UHGV virus genome: UHGV-1579991
DNA from: a virus
Direction: 5' to 3' (one strand)
DNA length: 64,000 nt
Part shown: in pieces, positions 3,372 through 62,085 of the stretch
Position numbering within the stretch: the first letter of the stretch is position 1
How the letters are laid out: every line of letters starts with the position of its first letter
Translations under genes and position numbers: made by a program
The notes under the pieces: model-generated
Seen by the model: only the letters and a program-made list of their open reading frames with translations
The model's database searches: none
What the model was told of the DNA's origin: nothing

Positions 3372-3444
3372 ATTGTAATGTATTTGAATGGTTTTGTTTT
3401 GTTTTTGCTATCGCATTTCAAAGACAAATGATATAATCATTTGT

Positions 3445-4719
3445 TTATATATTTGACAGCTGTTTGCGTTGCAAAATTGCATGACCGCAGTCATATACTG
3501 CAACATAACCTGCATCAATCATCTCTTGCTCATTTTGTCCGCAGTCTTCAATATGTTCTTTTGTCTTTAAATGACACCAGTGTTTGCGAATTGTTGACTT
3601 GTCATCTGACAGTTGCGGATTAAGTGCGAAGTTAGTTGAGTCTACTGGTTCACCTGCAAGATGCTTTCGAATGACATCAATGACTTCATTGTCATCCATC
3701 CATTCGAATATTGTAATGCAAGTGTAGCCAAGCTTAAGAGCAAGCTGAGTTTTGTCGAAGTGATAGAATTTGCTAACATGCTTATTGTGTGTAGTACGGC
3801 CAATTAAATATGCAAAACCATATGTTGAATTGTGTGACCAAGTTGGATTGATTTCAATCAATAATTTGCAATGTTCATTACTGTAATTGAGGTCATATGA
3901 CCATCGCTCAAGATTGACATCATCAAGCCCACAATCAATCCCAAGTTCTTGCAGCAATTTGTCATGCCACCAATGGTTTGCTCGTGATTTTACATGACCT
4001 TGAGCATCACGACATTTAGCAGTCATACAAAAATATGGGACACCATAGCGTTGCATGTTAGTTGACGCAATTTTTTGCAAATCGCCTGCAGCAGACCCAT
4101 ATTTTTGTCGTTTTGTTGCAACTGCTACTGCAATATTGCCAAATTTGTTGCCATATCGTTTCTGTTTAGTTTCAAGTGCTTTGTCAATATTTATGATGCC
4201 TCTTGTACCATGTTCTTTTTCACGTTTAGCTAAAATTGTTTGCATGTCGCCAAGTTTGTTGCCATATCGTTGCAATTTAGTTTCATGCATTTTTGCAATA
4301 TTTGTCCAACTATCACCATAATGTTGTCTATGTGTTGCAGCGCAACGTGCTTTGTCACCAAACATGTGTCCAAACTTTGCTAAACGACGCTCAACAAATT
4401 TTTGCATGTCACCCATGCCATTACCATATCGTTTCTGCTTAGTTGCAACAGCCTTTTGCATATTGACACCTCGATAGCCATAACGCATTTCTATTGTTGT
4501 AGTAATTTTATCACTGATGACTTTTGATTGCTGAGCATACTCAAAACCATATTTACGCAAGCAGCCAATTCGCTTATTATATTTCAAACGAATTTTACCA
4601 TGTGATGTCTTCTTTGGGCCATACCATTCATATGGCGTTTCTGCAATCAATTTATCACGTTCAGCTTCAAGTTCTTTTATTCGAGCTTCAAGAGCTTCAC
4701 CTATTAATTGTGTTGCCAT
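3445..4719 (-). CDS. Free-standing homing-endonuclease-like protein (family A): N-terminal coiled coil, tandem YG-repeats, C-terminal PD-(D/E)xK-like nuclease core
   Basis: N-term GEALEARIKELEAERD; repeats KQKRYGNGMGD / LQRYGNKLGD / KQKRYGNKFGN; C-term LLIEINPTWSHN...GYTCITIFEW; paralogs at 16935-18126 and 60966-62027. Confidence 0.5.
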   Translation of the reverse strand: MATQLIGEALEARIKELEAERDKLIAETPYEWYGPKKTSHGKIRLKYNKRIGCLRKYGFEYAQQSKVISDKITTTIEMRYGYRGVNMQKAVATKQKRYGNGMGDMQKFVERRLAKFGHMFGDKARCAATHRQHYGDSWTNIAKMHETKLQRYGNKLGDMQTILAKREKEHGTRGIINIDKALETKQKRYGNKFGNIAVAVATKRQKYGSAAGDLQKIASTNMQRYGVPYFCMTAKCRDAQGHVKSRANHWWHDKLLQELGIDCGLDDVNLERWSYDLNYSNEHCKLLIEINPTWSHNSTYGFAYLIGRTTHNKHVSKFYHFDKTQLALKLGYTCITIFEWMDDNEVIDVIRKHLAGEPVDSTNFALNPQLSDDKSTIRKHWCHLKTKEHIEDCGQNEQEMIDAGYVAVYDCGHAILQRKQLSNI

Positions 4720-4778: not shown

Positions 4779-6770
4779 ATGTCTGAAGTTAAGCATCAAG
4801 TATATGACCCTGTAGCACAATTCAAATCTGCAGAAGAAAAGGAAGCTGCAAGAGTCGTGTGGTGTTCAGAAAGTGTGCGTCGTGCATATGCAGCAGTTGA
4901 CCAAGGCCTGCCATTACGGTCGAATCCCTGGTTCTTTGGCAATATTGCATTGCGTAAGCCAGGACTATTGTATAGATACTCTGACGTAGAGCTACGTGAA
5001 TGGCTTAGATGTGCTTATGATATACTGTACTTTGCCAACACATACGCTACACTCATGACACCTGCAGGTGTGCGAATGCATATTACGTTGCGACCATATC
5101 AGAAAAAAATGCTTCGTGCGTATCAAAAGCAAAAGTACATTATAAGTTTGTGTGGACGACAAATAGGCAAAACTACGACTGCTGCAATTTTCCTCGCTTG
5201 GGCTGTCATTTTCAATCGTGAGCTCAACATAGCAGTACTTGGCGACCGCTTGGCTACATCAAGTGAAAACCTGAACAAAACAAAAGACATCATAAACAAT
5301 CTGCCATTCTTTATGAAGCCTGGTGTGTTTGTTTGGAATGGTGGAATGGTCGCATTTGACAATGGCTGCAAAATTATCACAGGTACTGCTCAAAAGTCAT
5401 CACTTGTCGGTAAAACAATTCACATCTTGTATCTTGATGAGCTCGCAATTCCGCCTGCTCAGCAATCAAAGACTCTTGTAGACTATGCATTGCCCACAAT
5501 TGCATCATTGCCAACTGGCAAAGTTATCGTAACATCTACGCCATCTGGTGATAATGTGTTCAAGACTTTGTGGCTTGGTGCAATTAACAAAACAAATGGA
5601 TTCTTTCCAATTCAAGTAAACTGGTGGGACATTCCAGGTCGTGATGAAAAGTGGAAAGCTGAACAAATTGCAATTCTTGGTGAAGATGCTTTCAATGAGC
5701 AATACAACTGCGTGTTCTTGTCAGGTGCAACGTCAATTTTCAATTCAAGAGCAATTGATGATATTGCAAGACGACAACAAAAGTATGAATTTGTTGCTGA
5801 TGAGCGTCTTGAATCGCTGCTCAGATTTTTCATTGCTGATTCAGATGTTGGCACTGAACCTGAGCCGCATTCATTTATGACTTGGCGTGCAGATATTGAC
5901 CCAGCGACACTCAAAAATGAAACATGTATCATCAACATCGACATCGCTGAAGGCTTATCTGGCGACTTTTCTGTCATACATGTGCATCGTATAGTTGACA
6001 TTGCAAAAGATGCTGAACTTGAACTTGATGCAAGCAATCTGTATGATATGTTTGACGATGACAAAAAATCATTGTTTGCAAAAGCAGTTGAAATGCAACG
6101 TCAAATGTCGGCAACACAAGCTCAAGATGATGACGATGATGACGATGACGACTGGTTTGGCGCAGACGATGATGTTGCTCAAGGAGTCGATGCATATCAA
6201 GATTATGCGAATGCTGCAGTAGAAGAGATTGGCTTGTGGCGCTCAAATGTGACGTCAATTAAAGTCATGGCTCTGTATTTGCAGTTCTTAATGACATATG
6301 TGTTTGACGCAAACAAAACAAAGATTATCTATGAACGCAACAAATATGGTGGAGAGTTTCGTTCATATTGTTTGTCTGAACGTGCACGCAATATTGCAAT
6401 TGATGAAGAGAGCTTCGTAAGCTTCCAACGAACTCTTGGTTCAGAACAACTTGCACCAGGCTGTTCAATTACGCCTGGCACCAAACCAGTGTACGTAAGA
6501 CAGCTCAAAGACCTTATTGAAACTGGCAAGATTCTTGAAAACAATGCAGATACGCAAAGAGAGCTTACATACTTTGGCGGTGTCAAAGGCAAGAATGGTC
6601 ATGTGTCATATCAGGCATCACCAGGCTTCCATGATGACATTGCAATGACTCTTGTATCTCTTGCAGCATTTATGGACACTCGATGCAACGATTGGCTTGA
6701 ACTGCTTGATGTGTTCTACAATGGCAGCAGTCAAACAAGTTCTGATGATGACGATGATGACTGGATTTGA
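4779..6770 (+). CDS. Terminase large subunit (T4 gp17-like)
   Basis: Walker A CGRQIGKTT, Walker B ILYLDELA, overall resemblance to gp17 ATPase region; ATG at 4779; unusual poly-Asp tracts (DDDDDDDDDW and C-terminal DDDDDDWI). Confidence 0.85.
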   Translation: MSEVKHQVYDPVAQFKSAEEKEAARVVWCSESVRRAYAAVDQGLPLRSNPWFFGNIALRKPGLLYRYSDVELREWLRCAYDILYFANTYATLMTPAGVRMHITLRPYQKKMLRAYQKQKYIISLCGRQIGKTTTAAIFLAWAVIFNRELNIAVLGDRLATSSENLNKTKDIINNLPFFMKPGVFVWNGGMVAFDNGCKIITGTAQKSSLVGKTIHILYLDELAIPPAQQSKTLVDYALPTIASLPTGKVIVTSTPSGDNVFKTLWLGAINKTNGFFPIQVNWWDIPGRDEKWKAEQIAILGEDAFNEQYNCVFLSGATSIFNSRAIDDIARRQQKYEFVADERLESLLRFFIADSDVGTEPEPHSFMTWRADIDPATLKNETCIINIDIAEGLSGDFSVIHVHRIVDIAKDAELELDASNLYDMFDDDKKSLFAKAVEMQRQMSATQAQDDDDDDDDDWFGADDDVAQGVDAYQDYANAAVEEIGLWRSNVTSIKVMALYLQFLMTYVFDANKTKIIYERNKYGGEFRSYCLSERARNIAIDEESFVSFQRTLGSEQLAPGCSITPGTKPVYVRQLKDLIETGKILENNADTQRELTYFGGVKGKNGHVSYQASPGFHDDIAMTLVSLAAFMDTRCNDWLELLDVFYNGSSQTSSDDDDDDWI

Positions 6771-7357: not shown

Positions 7358-7669
7358 TTATAATGAGTCAGACACTACAGATGCATATTGCAAGACCTGT
7401 TTGCGAATATCACTGCCAATCAGTCGTTCATATTGCAGACGCAGTTCTGTAACTGTCATATTATCTGGCAGCTCTTTGACTTTGATAAAGATGCCTGCAG
7501 TGTCACCTTTAGCAATATAGCCTGTTTTCTCGCACATGTTACGCAAACAGTCAATATATGAATGTCGCTCAGATTTGACTGCACATAGCATTTGCTGCCT
7601 GCTAAATGACTCACCTACTGCAATGCTTGCAATGAATGACTTAAATGCATGCCAACGTGTCATTGTCAT
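7358..7669 (-). CDS. Hypothetical protein, 103 aa
   Basis: ORF in minus-strand gene array. Confidence 0.4.
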   Translation of the reverse strand: MTMTRWHAFKSFIASIAVGESFSRQQMLCAVKSERHSYIDCLRNMCEKTGYIAKGDTAGIFIKVKELPDNMTVTELRLQYERLIGSDIRKQVLQYASVVSDSL

Positions 7670-16904: not shown

Positions 16905-16950
16905 TATATGTAAAAATATTGTACAACAATACTGTCATTTTTGCACAGCA
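16905..16950 (-). promoter_or_regulatory. Promoter-like conserved motif containing TTGTACAA
   Basis: Minus-strand GTGCAAAAATGACAGTATTGTTGTACAATATTTTTAC about 35 nt upstream of clamp-loader ATG. Confidence 0.5.
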
Positions 16951-18126
16951 TGGCCGCAATCGTACACAGGCACATAACCAGCGTCAAGCATTTGTTGTTC
17001 ATCTACTTCTGCAGTATGCGCAGCATACAGTCGCTTCTTGTAATTCCACCAATGTTTTCTAATAGTCAATTTGTCATTGCATATGACAGGATTTTTTGAC
17101 AAGTCTGTGCTATCTACACGTTCATTGCATAAATGCTGTCGTATGATTTCTACAACGTCATCAGGGTTATCCCAATCCCATATTGTAATGCATATGTAGC
17201 CTGCTGTAAGTGCTGCTTGAGTTTTTCTAAAATGTCTATCATTAGGAATTGGCAAATTGCGTTTAGATTTGCCAATTGCATATGCAAAGCCAAATGCAGC
17301 ATTATGTGAAAACGATGGGTTGATTTCTATTAGTAGATGCTTATAATGCAAATCATAAGAAAATCTGCCAATATTGACATCATCAAATGTGCAATCAATG
17401 TTAAGTCGTTGCAGCAAAAAATCATGCCACCAACGATTAACCGTTGTAATGGTGCGCCCATTAGCATGCCGACAACGCTCAGTCATAACAAACCAAGGTA
17501 CACCATAGCGTTCAAGATTTGTTTGCATGCGTTTTGCAGTGCCACCATATTCATCACCGTATCGTAATCTGCGTGTATGAACTGCTTTTAATGGGTTGCC
17601 AGCAGAATTGCCATATCGTAGCATCTTTGTTTGCTGCGCTTTAGCAGTAATTACACCATGGTCAGGATAGTGTTCGCGTATTGTTTGCTGCACTTTAGTA
17701 GCATTCCATGTGCGATAGCCGTACTTGTGTAATTTTGTTTGCTGGGCTTTTTGCATGTTGTTATAATATGGGTCGCCATAGCGTTCTTCTTTAATTTTGC
17801 ACATTAACTGTTGGTCGCCAAATGCATTGCCATATTTTGCAAGTTTTGTTGCCTTAAATTTAGTCATGTCGCCAAGCCCATTGCCATATCTTTCTCGTTT
17901 TGTTGCGACACCTTTGTTTGTAAATTCTTTTTAATTGCGCAGTGTTTTCAACACCATATTTACGCAAATTGCTTATACGACTGTTATATGTACGTTTGCA
18001 AATTGTGTATTGTGAGTAGCGTTTATGCTGAGGTCGTTCTTTAGACGCAGTTTGCAATATCACATCTCTTTCCTCTTCAAGTTCTTTTATGCGAGCTTCA
18101 AGAGCTTCTCCAGTTAATGGTTCCAT
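16935..18126 (-). pseudogene. Homing-endonuclease-like gene (family A paralog) split by a frameshift
   Basis: N-terminal ORF 17860-18126 (LTGEALEARIKELEEERD...ISNLRKYGVEN) and C-terminal ORF 16935-17867 (YG repeats, LLIEINPSFSHN, GYICITIWDWD) lie in different frames overlapping by 8 nt; T-run near 17925-17945. Confidence 0.5.
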
Positions 18127-54056: not shown

Positions 54057-54075
54057 TTATTTAAGTTTTGTGTTA

Positions 54076-55062
54076 TTATACTACAGCAGACAATTGTTGC
54101 AATGTTGACTGCATAACGTCATCAGTTACAAATAATTCGTTTTCAGTGAACACATAAAATTTTAAGCCATGTTGTTTTGCATATTGCACTGCTGCAGTAG
54201 ATTTTTTACGTACTGCATCACAAAATGCATATGCACATGGCTTAATTTCTATTAGCAATCCATATGTAGGCAAATAGAAATCTACAATGTATTTATGATG
54301 CCCATTGTATGGCACTGCAACAGTTTCATATTCATATTGAATGCCAAGACGTTCTAATGTCAATACAAAATGAGTTTCATAACTACTGCGTGTATGCAAT
54401 TGCGTTGGCATTGCAATAGAATGACATTTTACACACTGCTGAACAAGTACTAATGCGCGTTTGCCCTTACCACAGTTTTGCATTTTGCCATTTTGCATTG
54501 CTCGTGCAACACCTGCAGCAACGTGCATAGCAAATGATGGGTCTTCTTTATATTTTCGTCGTAACCCTGCAGATACACGAGACTTAAAGTCTGGGTCTTC
54601 TGCATAGCGTCTGTTCAAACCAGCAGTTACTCGTTGGCTAAATGTCGGGTCATTCACTACAGCAACCATTGCTTTTCGCGTGCCAATTGACACATTTTTA
54701 CATCGAGTTTCATCTCGCCATACTTTAGACATAGATGCTGTCCAGCGTTTAACATATTCAGGGTCATCAAACGCATGTTTTGCGCGACAGCATTTACAAA
54801 CATTATTAAAGTAGCCATATCTAATGCCTATGTATGCTATAGCAGCCCCACAATATTTGCAATGTTTTGCTGCGTCATCATACAATAGATATTTGTCATA
54901 GTAGTCTTGTTCATGCATATTAACAGATTGTAATGCTCTGCGTATTGTGCATGATGTACACCATTTGTTAAGCTCTGGTACATAATACTCATAACGTTGC
55001 TGCCCCTTTGGTGTTATTCGTGCAAGTCTTTTATATTCCGGATGATATGTAGGATTTTTCAT
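54076..55062 (-). CDS. Free-standing homing-endonuclease-like protein (family B): Cys-rich N-terminus, NUMOD3-like repeats, C-terminal PD-(D/E)xK core
   Basis: Repeats PTFSQRVTAGLNRRY / PDFKSRVSAGLRRKY / PSFAMHVAAGVARAM; nuclease core YIVDFYLPTYGLLIEIKP. Confidence 0.5.
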   Translation of the reverse strand: MKNPTYHPEYKRLARITPKGQQRYEYYVPELNKWCTSCTIRRALQSVNMHEQDYYDKYLLYDDAAKHCKYCGAAIAYIGIRYGYFNNVCKCCRAKHAFDDPEYVKRWTASMSKVWRDETRCKNVSIGTRKAMVAVVNDPTFSQRVTAGLNRRYAEDPDFKSRVSAGLRRKYKEDPSFAMHVAAGVARAMQNGKMQNCGKGKRALVLVQQCVKCHSIAMPTQLHTRSSYETHFVLTLERLGIQYEYETVAVPYNGHHKYIVDFYLPTYGLLIEIKPCAYAFCDAVRKKSTAAVQYAKQHGLKFYVFTENELFVTDDVMQSTLQQLSAVV

Positions 55063-55156
55063 AGAATATGTATATGCACGTTATGCACCAGGATGCACAA
55101 ACAAAAACTCACAGTAACTATGTATAGTTACTGTGAGTTATCACAACATGCTTTAA

Positions 55157-55879
55157 TTAGTTATCATGCACAGCAGCTATATAACGGCCTTGCGAATCCA
55201 AATGAATCGCAGTTTGCATTGTAATTTCTGGCTGCGCTTTGTTGTGTTGTTGCTCTGCATCATATTCACGTCGCAACCCACCATTCGGATGACATAGGTA
55301 AAACCTATCAAAATCTGTACCCAACTGTTCAGCGACAGACAGCATAATATTGTCGCCTACAAGCTGAGATGCTAGCAGAGAATTTGTTGGGATTCGTGGA
55401 TTGCGTGAGTCCTCGTCAATTGCTGGCAATGATACAAGCAAGTCTGCCCAAGCATTCATATCAGTGACCTTGCCACCGGCAAAGTTGATGCCAATGATTT
55501 GACAATTCGGTGCAAGCAATTCACGATGTTCACGAAGATATGTCATTGCAGTTGCAAGTTCAGATGTGTTGCCAGTTTTGCTGAATGCTACAATAACATC
55601 GTTGTTTCGAATCATGCCAAAGTCACCATGCATTGCATGCACTGCATCAAAGAATGATGCGTTCAATGACAAGCAATAACATGTTGCAGCAAGTTTTTCA
55701 CAGCAATGCACATTTTTGCCGATGCCAGTGAACAACACTTTGCCATCAGACTTCAATGCATTTGCAATGATATCTGCTGCAATGCCAAGAACATCATATT
55801 GCGCATCTGAAATGTTGTTGTGCCATGCTACAAGCGATTCAACTGATGCAGCAATGCCTTTGTGTACAAGTGTTTTCAT
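55157..55879 (-). CDS. SIS-domain sugar-phosphate isomerase, arabinose-5-phosphate isomerase (KdsD/KpsF)-like
   Basis: VLFTGIGKN, FFDAVHAMHGDFGMIRNNDVIVAFSKTGNTSEL, PTNSLLASQLVGDNI, FYLCHPNGGL follow the KdsD-type SIS pattern. Confidence 0.6.
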   Translation of the reverse strand: MKTLVHKGIAASVESLVAWHNNISDAQYDVLGIAADIIANALKSDGKVLFTGIGKNVHCCEKLAATCYCLSLNASFFDAVHAMHGDFGMIRNNDVIVAFSKTGNTSELATAMTYLREHRELLAPNCQIIGINFAGGKVTDMNAWADLLVSLPAIDEDSRNPRIPTNSLLASQLVGDNIMLSVAEQLGTDFDRFYLCHPNGGLRREYDAEQQHNKAQPEITMQTAIHLDSQGRYIAAVHDN

Positions 55880-57651: not shown

Positions 57652-59601
57652 TTAGTCATTTGCTTTAGTTGCTTGCATCAGTTCAGCAAAGCTTACAGTG
57701 TAAGCGTCTTCGCCAACGGTCACGTATGCAGCATTGACATTTGAGTCATTGCCTGTGTATGTAACCAAGGTGCCTGCAGGAATTTCCACACCGTCAATGG
57801 TTCGCATCGAATTGACAAGCTTGTATGTCTTGTTATCTTCGAAGTTCTCATTGACATATGCAGCAGCAATCATTGTTGAACGCTTACGAGATTCATTGAT
57901 GAAACTTGCGCCAACAAGTTCTGACAACTTCTTCTTTGTTACAGCAGAGCATTTGTCATATGCAATGTCAATTGCGAGGTCTACATCACCAAGTTCCTTT
58001 GCAATGAGTTCATCAATCTGAGACAGCTTCTTGTCATCTTTGACAGCGACAAAATTCATTGCAAACTTGCGAGCGTTGTCTGACAATGATTCATCAATGT
58101 TCCACTGTTTCATCAATGTCTGCTTCAGTACCTTGTCAAGTTCCGACCAGTCCTTATCTGCAAGAGTAGTTGCATCAAAGTCTTCATTGCTGAACTGCTT
58201 CAGCACTTTGACTTTGTCATCATGTGACAATGCAGCCCACTTGTTTGCAGCCTCTTCAGCAGATTCAAGCAAAGGCTTGATTGCATCTTTGAGTTCTTGC
58301 GGCCAAGTTTCAGGCGCTTTGAGCAGCATCTCAGATGAGTTGTACTCAAGCATGTCAGTCATGATTGCAAGCTTAACATTGTTAGCTTTCTCCTCGGGTG
58401 ACAGAGCTTTGAACTTTTCAGCCCAGTCTTCAGATTCAGTTACAATTGACACTGGTTTTGCAAAACCAGCAACAAAGACAAGCTTATACATGATATTCGT
58501 CATGAATGAGCAAACTGCATCAATGTCTGACTGTGTTGCTGCAGATTGAGCATCACGAATGTTGAGCAATGCCTGACGAAGAGACATAATGCCTACAACA
58601 GGGTCAGACCATGTCAACACAACAGAGCTGTCAATTGTGATACCCTTGTCGAATCGCATATTTTCTGCAATACGGTCAGCAAGTTCAGGCAGTTCAGTGT
58701 AGTACTGCTCAAGTGCTGCATGTGTAGCAGGAATCGAAACTTTTGCAGCATCAAATGGGTTGTTGATGTGCATAACATGTGCAGTTTGAATTGACTGCAT
58801 CAGCATCGACACTACTGCAGATTCTATTGCAACATCATCTGCAGCAGCTTCATCAAGATTTGCAAGTTTTAGCAATGTCTTTTTGTCTGCATCTGACAAT
58901 CGCAGCCAAATGTATTCCCATTGACTGTTTGCATCATAGCCACGGTCAGTAGCAAACTTGGTGAGTTCTGCAGATTTCTTTGCTGCGTCATCGTCATCAA
59001 GCCAATCCAAGAATGCTTTCAGTTTGTCGTCAAATGCTTCATTAACAAATGACGCCATTGCATTTTGCAGCAAATATTGATGGTCTCGTACTGGCGACTC
59101 AACAATTTCAAAGCCTTCAAGAGACTTTGGCGAGTCAGTTGCTGAACCAGCTTCAAGACACTTCTTTGATGCATTGTCAATGACAAACCACATCTTTTGT
59201 GCTTTGAGTGCAATGTAAGTCTTGTCTTTTGATTGCTGAACAGTCATGTTGTCAAGAGCCAATGCACTGATTGGCAAATTCTTGACTGCTGACTTGTCAA
59301 GTGCTTCATTGACTGCTACATTGTCATCACTCATTAACTGAGTATTTGCAGCAAATGTTGCAGAATCAATGTTAAGCTCTTTGCCATCAGGCATAGAGAA
59401 CTTAACTGCATCTGCAACATCAAGCACTTGTACCATGGTACCTGCTTCGACTTTGTCATCACCAACAGCGAACTCAGTTACAACCTGATATGCCTTGTTA
59501 GCTTCAACAGTTTCAACAGACTCCATAATGAACTTTGCTGTACTGCAAGAGATTTTGTGCTTTTTCATGTTCATGTATGAATTTGAGTGTTTGTTGTTCA
59601 T
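57652..59601 (-). CDS. Hypothetical acidic helical protein, about 649 aa (start uncertain); possible scaffold or virion protein
   Basis: Long ORF located between capsid-gene region and the protease gene. Confidence 0.45.
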   Translation of the reverse strand: MNNKHSNSYMNMKKHKISCSTAKFIMESVETVEANKAYQVVTEFAVGDDKVEAGTMVQVLDVADAVKFSMPDGKELNIDSATFAANTQLMSDDNVAVNEALDKSAVKNLPISALALDNMTVQQSKDKTYIALKAQKMWFVIDNASKKCLEAGSATDSPKSLEGFEIVESPVRDHQYLLQNAMASFVNEAFDDKLKAFLDWLDDDDAAKKSAELTKFATDRGYDANSQWEYIWLRLSDADKKTLLKLANLDEAAADDVAIESAVVSMLMQSIQTAHVMHINNPFDAAKVSIPATHAALEQYYTELPELADRIAENMRFDKGITIDSSVVLTWSDPVVGIMSLRQALLNIRDAQSAATQSDIDAVCSFMTNIMYKLVFVAGFAKPVSIVTESEDWAEKFKALSPEEKANNVKLAIMTDMLEYNSSEMLLKAPETWPQELKDAIKPLLESAEEAANKWAALSHDDKVKVLKQFSNEDFDATTLADKDWSELDKVLKQTLMKQWNIDESLSDNARKFAMNFVAVKDDKKLSQIDELIAKELGDVDLAIDIAYDKCSAVTKKKLSELVGASFINESRKRSTMIAAAYVNENFEDNKTYKLVNSMRTIDGVEIPAGTLVTYTGNDSNVNAAYVTVGEDAYTVSFAELMQATKAND

Positions 59602-59674: not shown

Positions 59675-59851
59675 TTGAACGACTAAATTGTACATCTTCC
59701 ACAATGATATAGAATCATTGTTAATATTGTATTGATATTGTACAACATGCATTGCATATTTGCAATGATACAACATGCAAAATGCACTTGCACTTTGATG
59801 CAAAGTACTGCGTACACAACATGCATTGCATATTTGCATTTTGACGCAATG

Positions 59852-60874
59852 TCATTGTTGTTTATGCCAGCCATATGATGCCTGACCAGCATCATACACT
59901 TCTACAAAACCATGGTCGTACATAAAATCTTCATTACGAGTGCCCTTGCCACCATTAGTGCCAAGAATACGGTCTGCACCATGCATAAGTAGCATGTTAT
60001 TTGTGACATGTTGCTTTGTCAGCATATTGAACCAGTGTTTGCTATATGACAAACCAAGACCATCAAAGCCCAGCTTTGTGTACACACCACCGTCAAACTT
60101 GCTTAAATCACAATATGATAACACAGATTCAGGGTCATATGTCTTGATAAAGTGCTTAAAGATTCGTTCAGCACCACCAACAACTTTGGTTGCTGCACAA
60201 AGACGTAGCAATTCATATTGATAGCGCTTATTGTATCGTGGACGACCAAATGTCATAAGTTGATGAATGACATAACCACCAAGCAACTCAAGTGGATGAC
60301 CTTCAATCAACGCAAGATTGATAAAATTGCCTGAGCACTTGCCTTGCAAATGATGTTCAATCAAAAATTGATTTGCAGTATACTTGTCAATTTCAACAAC
60401 TTTAAGCTTGCGAGCATATACAATCTTTGATTTGTCTACGATTTGATGCTTGATGTGATTGATAACTTTCTTGGCGTCATCCCAATCCCACACATGAATA
60501 CAATGAAAGCCTGCAGCTTTTGCAATGTCTGTTTTCTTTGCATGAACATCACAAGGCAAATGTGCATCTTTTGCATCATGCATAAACAAGTGCTCAAATG
60601 AATGCGTACTGTTATGCGAAAATGCAGGATTGATGTTAATGACAATATTGTCATGTCGAAAATCGAAGACTTCATCACCAATGACAAAGTTGCGCTCAAA
60701 ATCTATACCGACATGTTTGAGCAACACTTGATGCCACACGTCTTTATAGGCTGATTCAAGCTTGCTTAGCTCATCACAGTTTGCAATGTTTTTGTAACGT
60801 TGAATAGCAGCATCAAAGTCAAGATTGACTTCAGCGTAGTCTGCATTTTTATCATAGTGAAATTTTGAGCTCAT
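59852..60874 (-). CDS. Homing-endonuclease-like protein with N-terminal PD-(D/E)xK-like domain related to the C-terminal domain of family A
   Basis: Start at MSSKFHYDK (ATG 60874-60872); IVININPAFSHNSTH...GFHCIHVWDWDD. Confidence 0.45.
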   Translation of the reverse strand: MSSKFHYDKNADYAEVNLDFDAAIQRYKNIANCDELSKLESAYKDVWHQVLLKHVGIDFERNFVIGDEVFDFRHDNIVININPAFSHNSTHSFEHLFMHDAKDAHLPCDVHAKKTDIAKAAGFHCIHVWDWDDAKKVINHIKHQIVDKSKIVYARKLKVVEIDKYTANQFLIEHHLQGKCSGNFINLALIEGHPLELLGGYVIHQLMTFGRPRYNKRYQYELLRLCAATKVVGGAERIFKHFIKTYDPESVLSYCDLSKFDGGVYTKLGFDGLGLSYSKHWFNMLTKQHVTNNMLLMHGADRILGTNGGKGTRNEDFMYDHGFVEVYDAGQASYGWHKQQ

Positions 60875-60890
60875 GCGTATAATTTTGTGT

Positions 60891-60935
60891 ATATAATTAT
60901 TGTACAACATGCAAATGCACATTGCATTTGATACA
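60891..60935 (-). promoter_or_regulatory. Promoter/operator element shared by homing-endonuclease genes
   Basis: Minus-strand GCAATGTGCATTTGCATGTTGTACAATAATTATATAC; near-identical element at 62041-62085. Confidence 0.5.
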
Positions 60936-60965
60936 ACATACAGTATAAGTTTGCTTTTGACAGAC

Positions 60966-62027
60966 TTATTTTGTATTGCTACGCGTCATTGTTAAATGAC
61001 CGCAATCATACACATCAACTTCTGTTTTGCCAAGCATACATGTATGACAATTTATTTTGAAATCTGCTGCAGTGTAATCAGGATAGTTTAGCGGAGATTC
61101 TTTTGACAAATCAATTTCAATTGTGTCAGTAGTTTTAAGTTGTTCAGTGCCTGCAATGATATCTGCAATAAGATTGATAACTTCTTCTTGTGAATCCCAA
61201 TCAAACACAGTTATGCAACGATAGCCTGCATCAAGTGCAAGTTTTGTTTTGTTGTAATGGTATTGAGCACCAATAACATTGTTGTCTTTTGCTCGACCAG
61301 TTAAATATGCAAAACTAACAGTGCAGTTGTGCGTAACTGTTGGACAAATTTCTATAAGTAACTTTGCAGGCTCATACTGCAAATCATATGTTTGATTATT
61401 GATGTTAAACTCGTACTGTGTATCAATTGCCAACTGTCGTAATAACGCATCATGCCACATCATATTACATTTAGAAATTGTTTTGGATGACAATCTGCAT
61501 TGCGGCAATTGACATGGCCAATCTACGCCGTACATTTGTTGTGTTGTTTGACGCATTTTGTTAACATCACCAAAATGATTGCCATATCGATGCTCTTTGG
61601 TTTTAAGCGACTGCTCAATATTGACATTGCCTACACAACCATAACGTTCAAGTTTTGTTGCAGCAGTTTTGCTAACATCACCATGCCCATTGCCAAATTT
61701 GGCGACTTTAGTTGCAAGTATTTTATGACTTGGGCCAAATGCATTGCCATACAATTCTTGTTTAGTCGCAAGCATTTTGTCGATATTACAACCAGCGCCA
61801 TAAGTGTTATGCATAGTTTGCATACGTTGTCGAATAAATTTTGGCACAGATAAAGGACTTTCTACACCATATTTGCGTAAGCAACTGATTTTGCATGCGT
61901 ACTTTTGCTTGATGACAGAATGTGCATTTCGACGTCCTATGTAAGTGTTTTCTGATGTAGCAGCAAGCTCTGCATCTCTAAGAACTTCAAGTGCAGCAAT
62001 TCGTGCTTCAATTTCTTCAGATGTCAT
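60966..62027 (-). CDS. Free-standing homing-endonuclease-like protein (family A paralog)
   Basis: N-term EEIEARIAALEVLRD, YG repeats (ELYGNAFG, ERYGCVGN, HRYGNHFGD), C-term LLIEICPTVTHN...GYRCITVFDWD. Confidence 0.5.
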   Translation of the reverse strand: MTSEEIEARIAALEVLRDAELAATSENTYIGRRNAHSVIKQKYACKISCLRKYGVESPLSVPKFIRQRMQTMHNTYGAGCNIDKMLATKQELYGNAFGPSHKILATKVAKFGNGHGDVSKTAATKLERYGCVGNVNIEQSLKTKEHRYGNHFGDVNKMRQTTQQMYGVDWPCQLPQCRLSSKTISKCNMMWHDALLRQLAIDTQYEFNINNQTYDLQYEPAKLLIEICPTVTHNCTVSFAYLTGRAKDNNVIGAQYHYNKTKLALDAGYRCITVFDWDSQEEVINLIADIIAGTEQLKTTDTIEIDLSKESPLNYPDYTAADFKINCHTCMLGKTEVDVYDCGHLTMTRSNTK

Positions 62028-62040
62028 TTTTTATCATATT

Positions 62041-62085
62041 GATAATTGTACAACATGCAAATGGCGTTTGCATTTGATGCAACAA
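62041..62085 (-). promoter_or_regulatory. Promoter/operator element shared by homing-endonuclease genes
   Basis: Minus-strand GCAAACGCCATTTGCATGTTGTACAATTATCAATATG. Confidence 0.5.

Follow-up and report, generated by a model that had tools for sequence, protein, structure and literature searches.

The virus genome UHGV-1579991, which belongs to an uncultured jumbo myovirus, was analysed over a stretch of 64,000 nucleotides (the window), where five open reading frames (ORFs) are present on the minus strand, designated here as A (3445-4719), B (16935-18126), C (60966-62027), D (59852-60874) and E (54076-55062). We propose, with a probability of roughly 0.7, that A-D, together with two or more additional copies lying outside the window, are Hef-type homing endonuclease genes which stand free and turn over actively, and that they belong to the Vsr-like EDxHD branch of the PD-(D/E)xK superfamily, while E represents a nuclease of another lineage. 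The family is already known, and what is met here is its domain-loss version caught in unusually informative turnover.

The first-pass annotation of this DNA described A, B and C as paralogs composed of an N-terminal helix, repeats and a C-terminal core, and BLAST, motif search and structural modeling all agree with that. According to tblastn against the window, A and B are 47% identical (E 4e-96) and A and C 33% identical (E 3e-59), while D, which also carries the nuclease core, matches all three over this core with E-values from 1e-11 to 1e-17. The motif EALEARIKELE is found in A and in the N-terminal fragment of B, and the signatures LLIEINPxxSHN and GYxCIxI(F/W)(D/E)W were confirmed as well. 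The multi-copy character of the family extends beyond the window: a contig of 181 kilobases (kb), carrying a protein identical to A (P0001), encodes elsewhere the paralogs P0015, with a peptidase C1 neighbourhood on one side and a helicase on the other, and P0017, adjoining a sigma-like gene, which brings the family to at least six copies there. All members within the window are free-standing and situated between conserved genes, as had been noted. A (424 amino acids), a full-length repeat-type Hef-like nuclease, lies beside the terminase gene in divergent orientation; C (353 amino acids; A-type architecture with about seven repeats) is placed downstream of the major capsid gene; and B, also of A-type architecture, occupies a site flanked by genes of primase-helicase and clamp loader. 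The latter is split into an N-terminal fragment of 88 amino acids (17860-18126) and a C-terminal fragment of 310 amino acids (16935-17867), since the repeat sequence runs on in another frame near 17905-17925, as was evident from BLAST and translation; the frameshift proposed earlier is thus real in the assembly, and B is a probable pseudogene unless a sequencing error is responsible. The protein P0024, considered as an independent assembly of B that could serve to check the frameshift, turned out to be a different protein. In databases A-C form a small subfamily of 39 clusters, all metagenomic, and neither megablast nor tblastn gave a match for A in the annotated phage collection.

The model of A built with AlphaFold (AF2; mean predicted local distance difference test score, pLDDT, of 83) consists of a long helix, a repeat array and an alpha/beta domain following in this order. 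The helix (residues 7-27, EALEARIKELEAERD; 4639-4701, minus strand) is amphipathic, modelled with pLDDT 90-98, and its motif is common to most alleles; it is possibly a dimerisation element. The array (residues ~46-232; 4024-4584, minus strand) comprises about ten tandem helix-loop units of 18 residues with the consensus xxKxxxTKLERYGNxxGN (also written as TK-x-x-RYGN-x-x-G), the number of units in A-C ranging from 7 to 10. Each unit is modelled as a 12-residue helix and a 6-residue loop, nine helices being set at 18-residue spacing. The YG repeats recognized at first sight are real: the dominant distance between [YFW]G anchors across 39 homologs is 18 residues (79 instances), pairs separated by 17-19 residues occur six times in A, five in C and four in B against ~0.02-0.06 expected, and none of 5000 residue shuffles reached the observed periodicity. 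The array bears a net charge of +24 across 187 residues, the other parts of the protein being neutral or slightly acidic. The repeat architecture had been considered unassignable, but it corresponds to Pfam DUF7487, common in Hef-like proteins, although for the array of A this sole Pfam detection is weak and near threshold. We regard the DUF7487 array as the likely DNA-binding arm of Hef-type nucleases. It is also the hypervariable portion of the protein, with 29-47% identity in every non-identical pair of alleles.

The nuclease domain of A (residues ~233-345; 3685-4023, minus strand) adopts the fold of Vsr, DUF559 proteins and I-Bth0305I, with RAP-domain proteins and Hjc resolvases standing further down the list of matches. 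Residues D276, H296 and H320 are invariant, and E289, N297 and K323 near-invariant, in 38 sequences only 27-69% identical to A, which speaks for an active site under selection. A profile restricted to the nuclease domain (A4, 26 diverse members) matched I-Bth0305I (3r3p_A) in the PDB with E=1.8e-4 over ~90 aligned residues, the next match having an E-value of 0.42; a phmmer search with A, the full-length profile A2 and the full-length D profile A6 returned from the PDB only noise, of low complexity in the latter case. As judged from the HMMER sequence alignment rather than from three-dimensional superposition, Asp196 of I-Bth0305I corresponds to the invariant D276, Asn208 to N291, His213 to the invariant H296 and Lys225 to the near-invariant K323, and the LAIEVNG strand is shared as LLIEINP. 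Comparison of the nuclease profile with the sequence of E. coli Vsr was not significant in hhalign (probability 3.7%), so that the link to Vsr rests on the fold and on the match to I-Bth0305I. Earlier assignment of the family to PD-(D/E)xK nucleases thus holds at the level of the superfamily, whereas the canonical D...(D/E)-x-K signature is absent from A-D: D276 and E289 are in place, but the position of lysine is taken by N291, and this column contains 28 Asn, 6 Cys, 3 Ser, 1 Asp and no Lys in the 38 sequences. The same lysine is likewise lacking in Vsr. That the family does not belong to GIY-YIG, HNH or LAGLIDADG types, as was also suggested, agrees with the lack of Pfam or NCBIfam matches to these and to His-Cys box domains at E<=1 for all five proteins; no NCBIfam model exists for the A family. 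The EDxHD group, in which "bacteriophage Hef type homing endonucleases" were explicitly listed by Taylor et al. 2011 (PMC3239194), fits instead, and the window genes share its fold and a large part of its active site, with a departure from the strict motif considered below.

Direct connection to Hef comes from D (340 amino acids, its ORF extending to 60922), which lacks repeats and is a classical Hef nuclease-plus-GNAT core, composed of a Vsr-like nuclease (~60440-60778) and a Mom-like GNAT domain (~59855-60427). It matches phrog_3339 "homing endonuclease" at 1.3e-41 and phrog_559 at 1.2e-35 (A matches phrog_3339 at 1.1e-5), and its tblastn search retrieved 341 phage records annotated as Hef34, Hef-like or homing endonuclease, with 9-11 copies per genome in Campylobacter phages. 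Among them are Hef34 of phage NCTC12673 (1e-19), whose annotation notes a resemblance to Hef of phage U5, and the Hef-like protein of Vibrio phage VP-1 (3e-25), which itself has weak Pfam matches to Vsr and DUF559. Both can be aligned to the nuclease of A-D and, in the case of D, to the whole C-terminal half as well. The set used for comparison, encompassing U5 Hef and Hef-like genes of Campylobacter (Hef34), Vibrio, Dickeya LIMEstone and other phages (PHROG 3339/559), has in common with the window genes the core elements S-x-x-N/E helix, (Y/L)D(F/L), IE-x-N-(P/G)-x3-H, YH-x-x-KT and G(Y/F)-x-C-I, while the entire GNAT module is shared with D. These genes are also free-standing between conserved genes and often present in several copies per genome, as exemplified by four in LIMEstone1 (PMC3296691). 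Unlike them, A, B and C have no GNAT domain save its last strands and possess the N-terminal long helix, and D is devoid of an N-terminal DNA-binding arm, which is represented by other modules in Hef34 and by helix-turn-helix (HTH) domains in VP-1. The databases contain 718 homologs of D; the listed ones are mostly 480-590 amino acids long and also carry DUF7487, which implies that the common architecture is a repeat arm followed by the nuclease and a C-terminal module. This three-part arrangement of arm, nuclease and GNAT is complete in none of the window genes: most of the C-terminal module has been lost from A-C and the arm from D. The tail of A (residues 346-424, KHW...VYDCGH; 3448-3684, minus strand) aligns with the last GNAT strands of D and Hef and is a vestige of the deleted Mom-like domain.

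Turnover of these genes becomes visible in comparison with two close relatives, IMG/VR UViG_3300045988_152288 (174.6 kb) and _149023 (175.6 kb), whose core genes encode proteins 94-99% identical to their counterparts in the window; all comparison data are metagenomic assemblies. The A-D sites are occupied by a family member in both relatives, at the A, B and C sites mostly by mosaic alleles 35-57% identical to ours. The A site of 152288 contains a member of 431 amino acids with 35% identity, and DNA identity is lost over window positions 3397-4628. In 149023, residues 1-194 of A are 97% identical, followed by a break within the repeats and an unrelated gene; here (L004, 1-1190) the truncated A abuts an ORF of at least 330 amino acids with a lipoprotein-like leader and the repeated element "S/T-x-DG-x-x-W", beta-propeller-like in appearance. 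At the B site the relatives possess intact alleles of 455 and 343 amino acids, 39% and 50% identical, within flanks of 97-100% identity. C is 99% identical in 152288 and 57% in 149023, with the break at window positions 61274-61995, whereas D is 97-98% identical in both. One more member occupies the region upstream of the capsid gene just past the end of the window in both relatives, and the same allele pattern is repeated at the P0015 site in two further contigs. For our own genome, an exact look-up of the capsid protein that could have shown this site retrieved no record. A more distant contig, L014 (capsid protein 75% identical), was considered as a carrier of an empty C/D site, and this was ruled out by a decayed, 5′-truncated Hef-like remnant found there (hhalign probability 89.5%, E 2e-6).

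The similarity between alleles is distributed unevenly along their length. The nuclease of A is 83% and its tail 91-94% identical to those of peptidase-site genes of other genomes, as against 42% and 26%, respectively, for the allele at its own site in 152288; at the DNA level A and P0015 share 91.5% identity in their tails; and C resembles its counterpart from 149023 by 98% in the tail, 56% in the nuclease and 43% in the repeats. In the region-wise identity matrix alleles group neither by site nor by genome. The alleles are thus mosaics, the outcome of recombination between paralogous copies, and the part that changes fastest is the arm that putatively reads DNA. Exchange has also affected the flank of A: the first ~450 base pairs (bp) of the terminase gene (4779-5230, plus strand; codons 1 to ~145), abutting A, are only 66-79% identical at the nucleotide level to both relatives, although the two agree with each other at ~100% in this tract, while beyond a boundary located just past the codons of the Walker A P-loop identity rises to 95-100%. 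Such a tract could result from co-conversion with a more distant relative as donor, or from selection of a target that resists cleavage, and the 5′ region of the terminase gene may be considered as a candidate target of A, the tract itself being no proof of cutting there.

One might suspect that the entire picture is an artefact, the similarity and repeats arising by chance or from low complexity and the differences between alleles from chimeric assemblies, given the metagenomic origin of all data, the truncation junction in L004 lying only ~1.2 kb from the contig end, where an assembly join is possible, and the frameshift of B that may be a sequencing error. This is hardly credible in view of paralog E-values from 1e-11 to 1e-96, 39 and more than 700 database homologs, confident AF2 models, periodicity never reached in the shuffles and repetition of the pattern at five sites in five independent assemblies.

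The GNAT domain of D deserves special attention, since another function has been predicted for similar proteins. By fold it is closest to Mom of phage Mu, a GNAT-fold, tRNA-dependent adenine-modifying enzyme (8bv8), in which R111 and S124 are essential, R151A is inactive and the tested essential set includes R111, S124, D149 and R151 (PMC13219725). D retains H58, R111, D149, Y159 and W181 of Mom, and has Glu in place of S124 and Leu in place of R151. Hef34 (L022, 1772-3391) keeps all residues tested, that is H58, R111, S124, D149, R151 and Y159, and the GNAT domain may thus be catalytically competent in some annotated Hef homing endonucleases. To our knowledge, modification activity is not known for any Hef-like protein. 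Mom domains fused to restriction endonuclease (REase)-fold nucleases in jumbo phages, with five such genes in phage PA5oct, have been predicted to combine restriction with momylation (Iyer et al. 2021, PMC7824862), and one of the structural matches of A is a protein of this phage labelled "putative homing endonuclease". By analogy, D-type proteins would modify adenines of their own genome and cut unmodified DNA of the host or competitors, A, B and C being diversified restriction modules engaged in this conflict; stability of D (97-98%) combined with variability of A, B and C is what could be expected of an immunity component. We regard this main rival reading as unlikely, because two residues essential in Mom are substituted in D along with the nuclease Glu, which is changed to Asn, the GNAT domain is lost in A, B and C, and PADLOC defence-system models gave no match to A-E at E<=0.01. 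Moreover, Hef has been reported as an endonuclease with homing activity, which cuts near its own locus, the target in phage U5 being nrdB (PMC3322345, PMC2988022), and allele replacement, decay and the exchanged tract flanking A are the predictions of homing. The two functions are nevertheless compatible with each other.

Several observations weigh against the assignment of A-D to mobile homing endonucleases. The D-type architecture is read by PMC7824862 in the other way, as a restriction-plus-modification fusion. The EDxHD composite motif is incomplete, two of its four named residues being different: Glu170 of I-Bth0305I corresponds to N248 of A and Asp222 to H320, which is an invariant His (A-D all have Asn where Hef34 and VP-1 have the Glu, while His at the last position is found in these two as well), and in D the conserved Glu of the IEIN motif is also replaced by Asn. 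Searches with the arm brought up no characterised DNA-binding domain at a significant level, and DUF7487, a domain of unknown function, was mentioned in none of the papers searched. Finally, none of the close relatives offers a truly empty A, B, C or D site, clean presence/absence being observed for E only. Conserved syntenic presence in all relatives was named in the first-pass annotation as evidence that would speak against homing endonucleases, and formally family members do occupy the A-D sites throughout; but what resides at sites A, B and C is a set of highly divergent, mosaic or degenerate alleles, which argues for mobility and not against it. Taken at face value, filled sites in all close relatives, the incomplete motif and conservation of D in spite of its missing Glu would also be in line with catalytically dead proteins derived from homing endonucleases and domesticated as DNA-binding regulators or accessory factors of packaging or replication, and co-option of homing endonuclease domains is indeed documented (PMC10448857). 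Domestication seems quite improbable to us, since Asp276, His296, His320 and Lys323 vary hardly or not at all among very divergent alleles and recur in Hef34 and the VP-1 protein, and since replacement by alleles of 35-57% identity, truncation and frameshift are unexpected for domesticated genes in genomes with 94-99% identity. The combination of these events with homology of D to annotated Hef favours the homing-endonuclease character of A-D, in accordance with the initial suggestion.

Gene E (328 amino acids), free-standing as well, was initially credited with a related core and NUMOD3-like repeats, and the relatedness of the core was not borne out. Consideration of E as a divergent paralog of A-D was abandoned because tblastn detected only E itself, with no similarity to A-D, and because its family is TnsA-like; its LLIEIKP has only superficial likeness to LLIEINP, and Pfam NUMOD3 had no significant match in A-E. 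E is a canonical PD-(D/E)xK nuclease of other lineage with an analogous 18-residue arm. It comprises a Cys-x2-Cys zinc ribbon (~54787-54861), five repeats of ~18 residues, DP-x-F-x-x-RV-x-AGL (~54493-54771), and a TnsA-like nuclease domain (~54118-54399) with the canonical S..E / PD / ExK elements. The word-indexed search yielded, besides an identical copy of E carried by the 181 kb contig, one weak match, while the exhaustive HMMER search collected 247 remote relatives, many of them end-to-end. In 24 relatives S226, E229, D261 and K274 are invariant, E272 is conserved in at least 90% and the zinc ribbon is kept; 22 of the 24 match Pfam Tn7_TnsA-like_N (best 2.6e-16), while E itself scores 22.3 bits against the cutoff of 26.5 and gives weak Pfam matches, below the gathering threshold, to Phage_endo_I and TnsA_N. 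The E...PD...ExK signature is common to E and the TnsA N-terminal / T7 endonuclease I type, from which E differs as a free-standing phage gene with zinc ribbon and 18-residue arm outside any transposon context. The gene resides in an insertion of 1.1 kb (54057-55186), replaced by 35 bp in 149023 and by 138 bp in 152288, with the right break at window positions 55186/55301 according to blastn and with flanking genes abutting in L012 and L013; a short divergent patch lies beside E at positions 55187-55350. E would thus be an independent, recently inserted free-standing TnsA-like PD-(D/E)xK nuclease gene. Two of the 24 members of its family match Pfam DUF7487 in the repeat region (alignment A8), which suggests that the arm of 18-residue repeats is a portable module occurring in unrelated nuclease families.

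Comparison with better studied systems places A-D among known designs with certain distinctions. I-Bth0305I (3r3p, PMC3239194) likewise has an N-terminal DNA-binding region and a C-terminal nuclease, but it is intron-encoded and its arm consists of two NUMOD2/HTH motifs, whereas A-C are free-standing and equipped with an array of 18-residue repeats. Vsr and DUF559 proteins (1cw0, 3hrl) are bacterial proteins of repair or unknown function having no repeat arm. The T5orf172/HNH homing endonucleases of ICP1-like vibriophages (Barth, Dunham and Seed 2023, PMC10448857) also combine tandem short helical repeats with a nuclease and display, as here, allele differences focused on the arm, domain swaps and nuclease genes at the boundaries of exchange tracts, while both nuclease and repeat families differ from those of A-D, where repeats are DUF7487, and the same is true for NUMOD3 of GIY-YIG/HNH enzymes. 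One homolog of D carries both NUMOD3 and DUF7487.

Mechanistically, and by inference from the homology, fold, repeat structure, residue conservation and allele histories described above, the basic 18-residue YG-repeat array would lie along DNA and set the target preference, the N-terminal long helix might pair two subunits, and the C-terminal Vsr-like domain would cut DNA by means of Asp276, His296 and His320. In the course of co-infection, a cut introduced into a relative with another allele or with none would be repaired from the nuclease-encoding genome, and this repair would copy the nuclease gene together with adjacent markers. Recombination between paralogs may then reshuffle arrays and ends, giving rise to new specificities and moving copies between loci. 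A bolder extension, for which we see little likelihood, is that the genome runs a distributed, self-diversifying nuclease arsenal, in which DUF7487 would be a modular code for reading DNA, its specificity residing in variable helix positions, recombination between at least six loci would yield new cleavage specificities directed at competing phages, and the stable D would contribute self-protection through DNA modification or serve as an immunity partner.

Some other features of the region were registered along with the main subjects. The motif TGCA-n-TGCATGTTGTA(CAAT) occurs on the minus strand between 59741 and 62059, with one copy upstream of C (62049-62059), two upstream of D (60903-60913 and 60932-60942) and three downstream of D (59741-59751, 59769-59779 and 59815-59825), the last three being at the same time upstream of a gene for a protein of 649 amino acids. 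All four exact copies of the window fall into this interval, and of the other loci examined only L012 and L013, which are syntenic, contain the motif. A promoter used in common or the end of a duplicated cassette are possible interpretations. Scanning for sigma-70 promoters and terminators around A gave background level, and the phage probably uses promoters of other types. The 649-amino-acid protein encoded downstream of D is rich in acidic and alanine repeats, and ~180 bp of its gene (58857-59035) constitute an in-frame indel, missing in 152288 (homolog of 585 amino acids) and present in 149023. A mosaic patch with no adjacent nuclease gene is formed by the small gene 7358-7669, 79% identical in 152288 (DNA ~73% at window positions 7500-7650) and 96% in 149023 within flanks of 97-99%. 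The segment 37679-37841 recurs with 81% identity over ~160 bp in a remote intergenic part of the 181 kb contig (L018, 1214-1371), and a corresponding stretch in L002 agrees with the L018 copy at 98%; this is a dispersed repeat. The large terminase (4779-6770) shares 40% identity with its counterpart in Chryseobacterium phage MA9V-1 and matches those of Sphingomonas PAU and Tenacibaculum PTm1 less well, and megablast found no close DNA relative of the genome in the annotated phage collection. Two poly-aspartate runs, unusual in terminases, are present in this protein, QAQDDDDDDDDDWFGADDD near residue 455 and SSDDDDDDWI at the C-terminus.

For annotation, these results mean that A-D should be described as Hef-like (EDxHD) endonucleases and E as a TnsA-like free-standing nuclease. 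The Hef/EDxHD family is known but barely characterised, and we know of no solved structure, defined recognition code or defined role of the Mom-like domain for Hef-like proteins. In this respect the set of loci is a natural experiment, in which three to five near-identical phages hold the same sites in full-length, mosaic, truncated, frameshifted or newly inserted state. It sharpens the conflict in the literature between homing endonucleases on the one hand and Mom-REase fusions for restriction and modification on the other, and, as the window genes have variously lost one or the other module, makes the choice between homing and restriction/modification testable.

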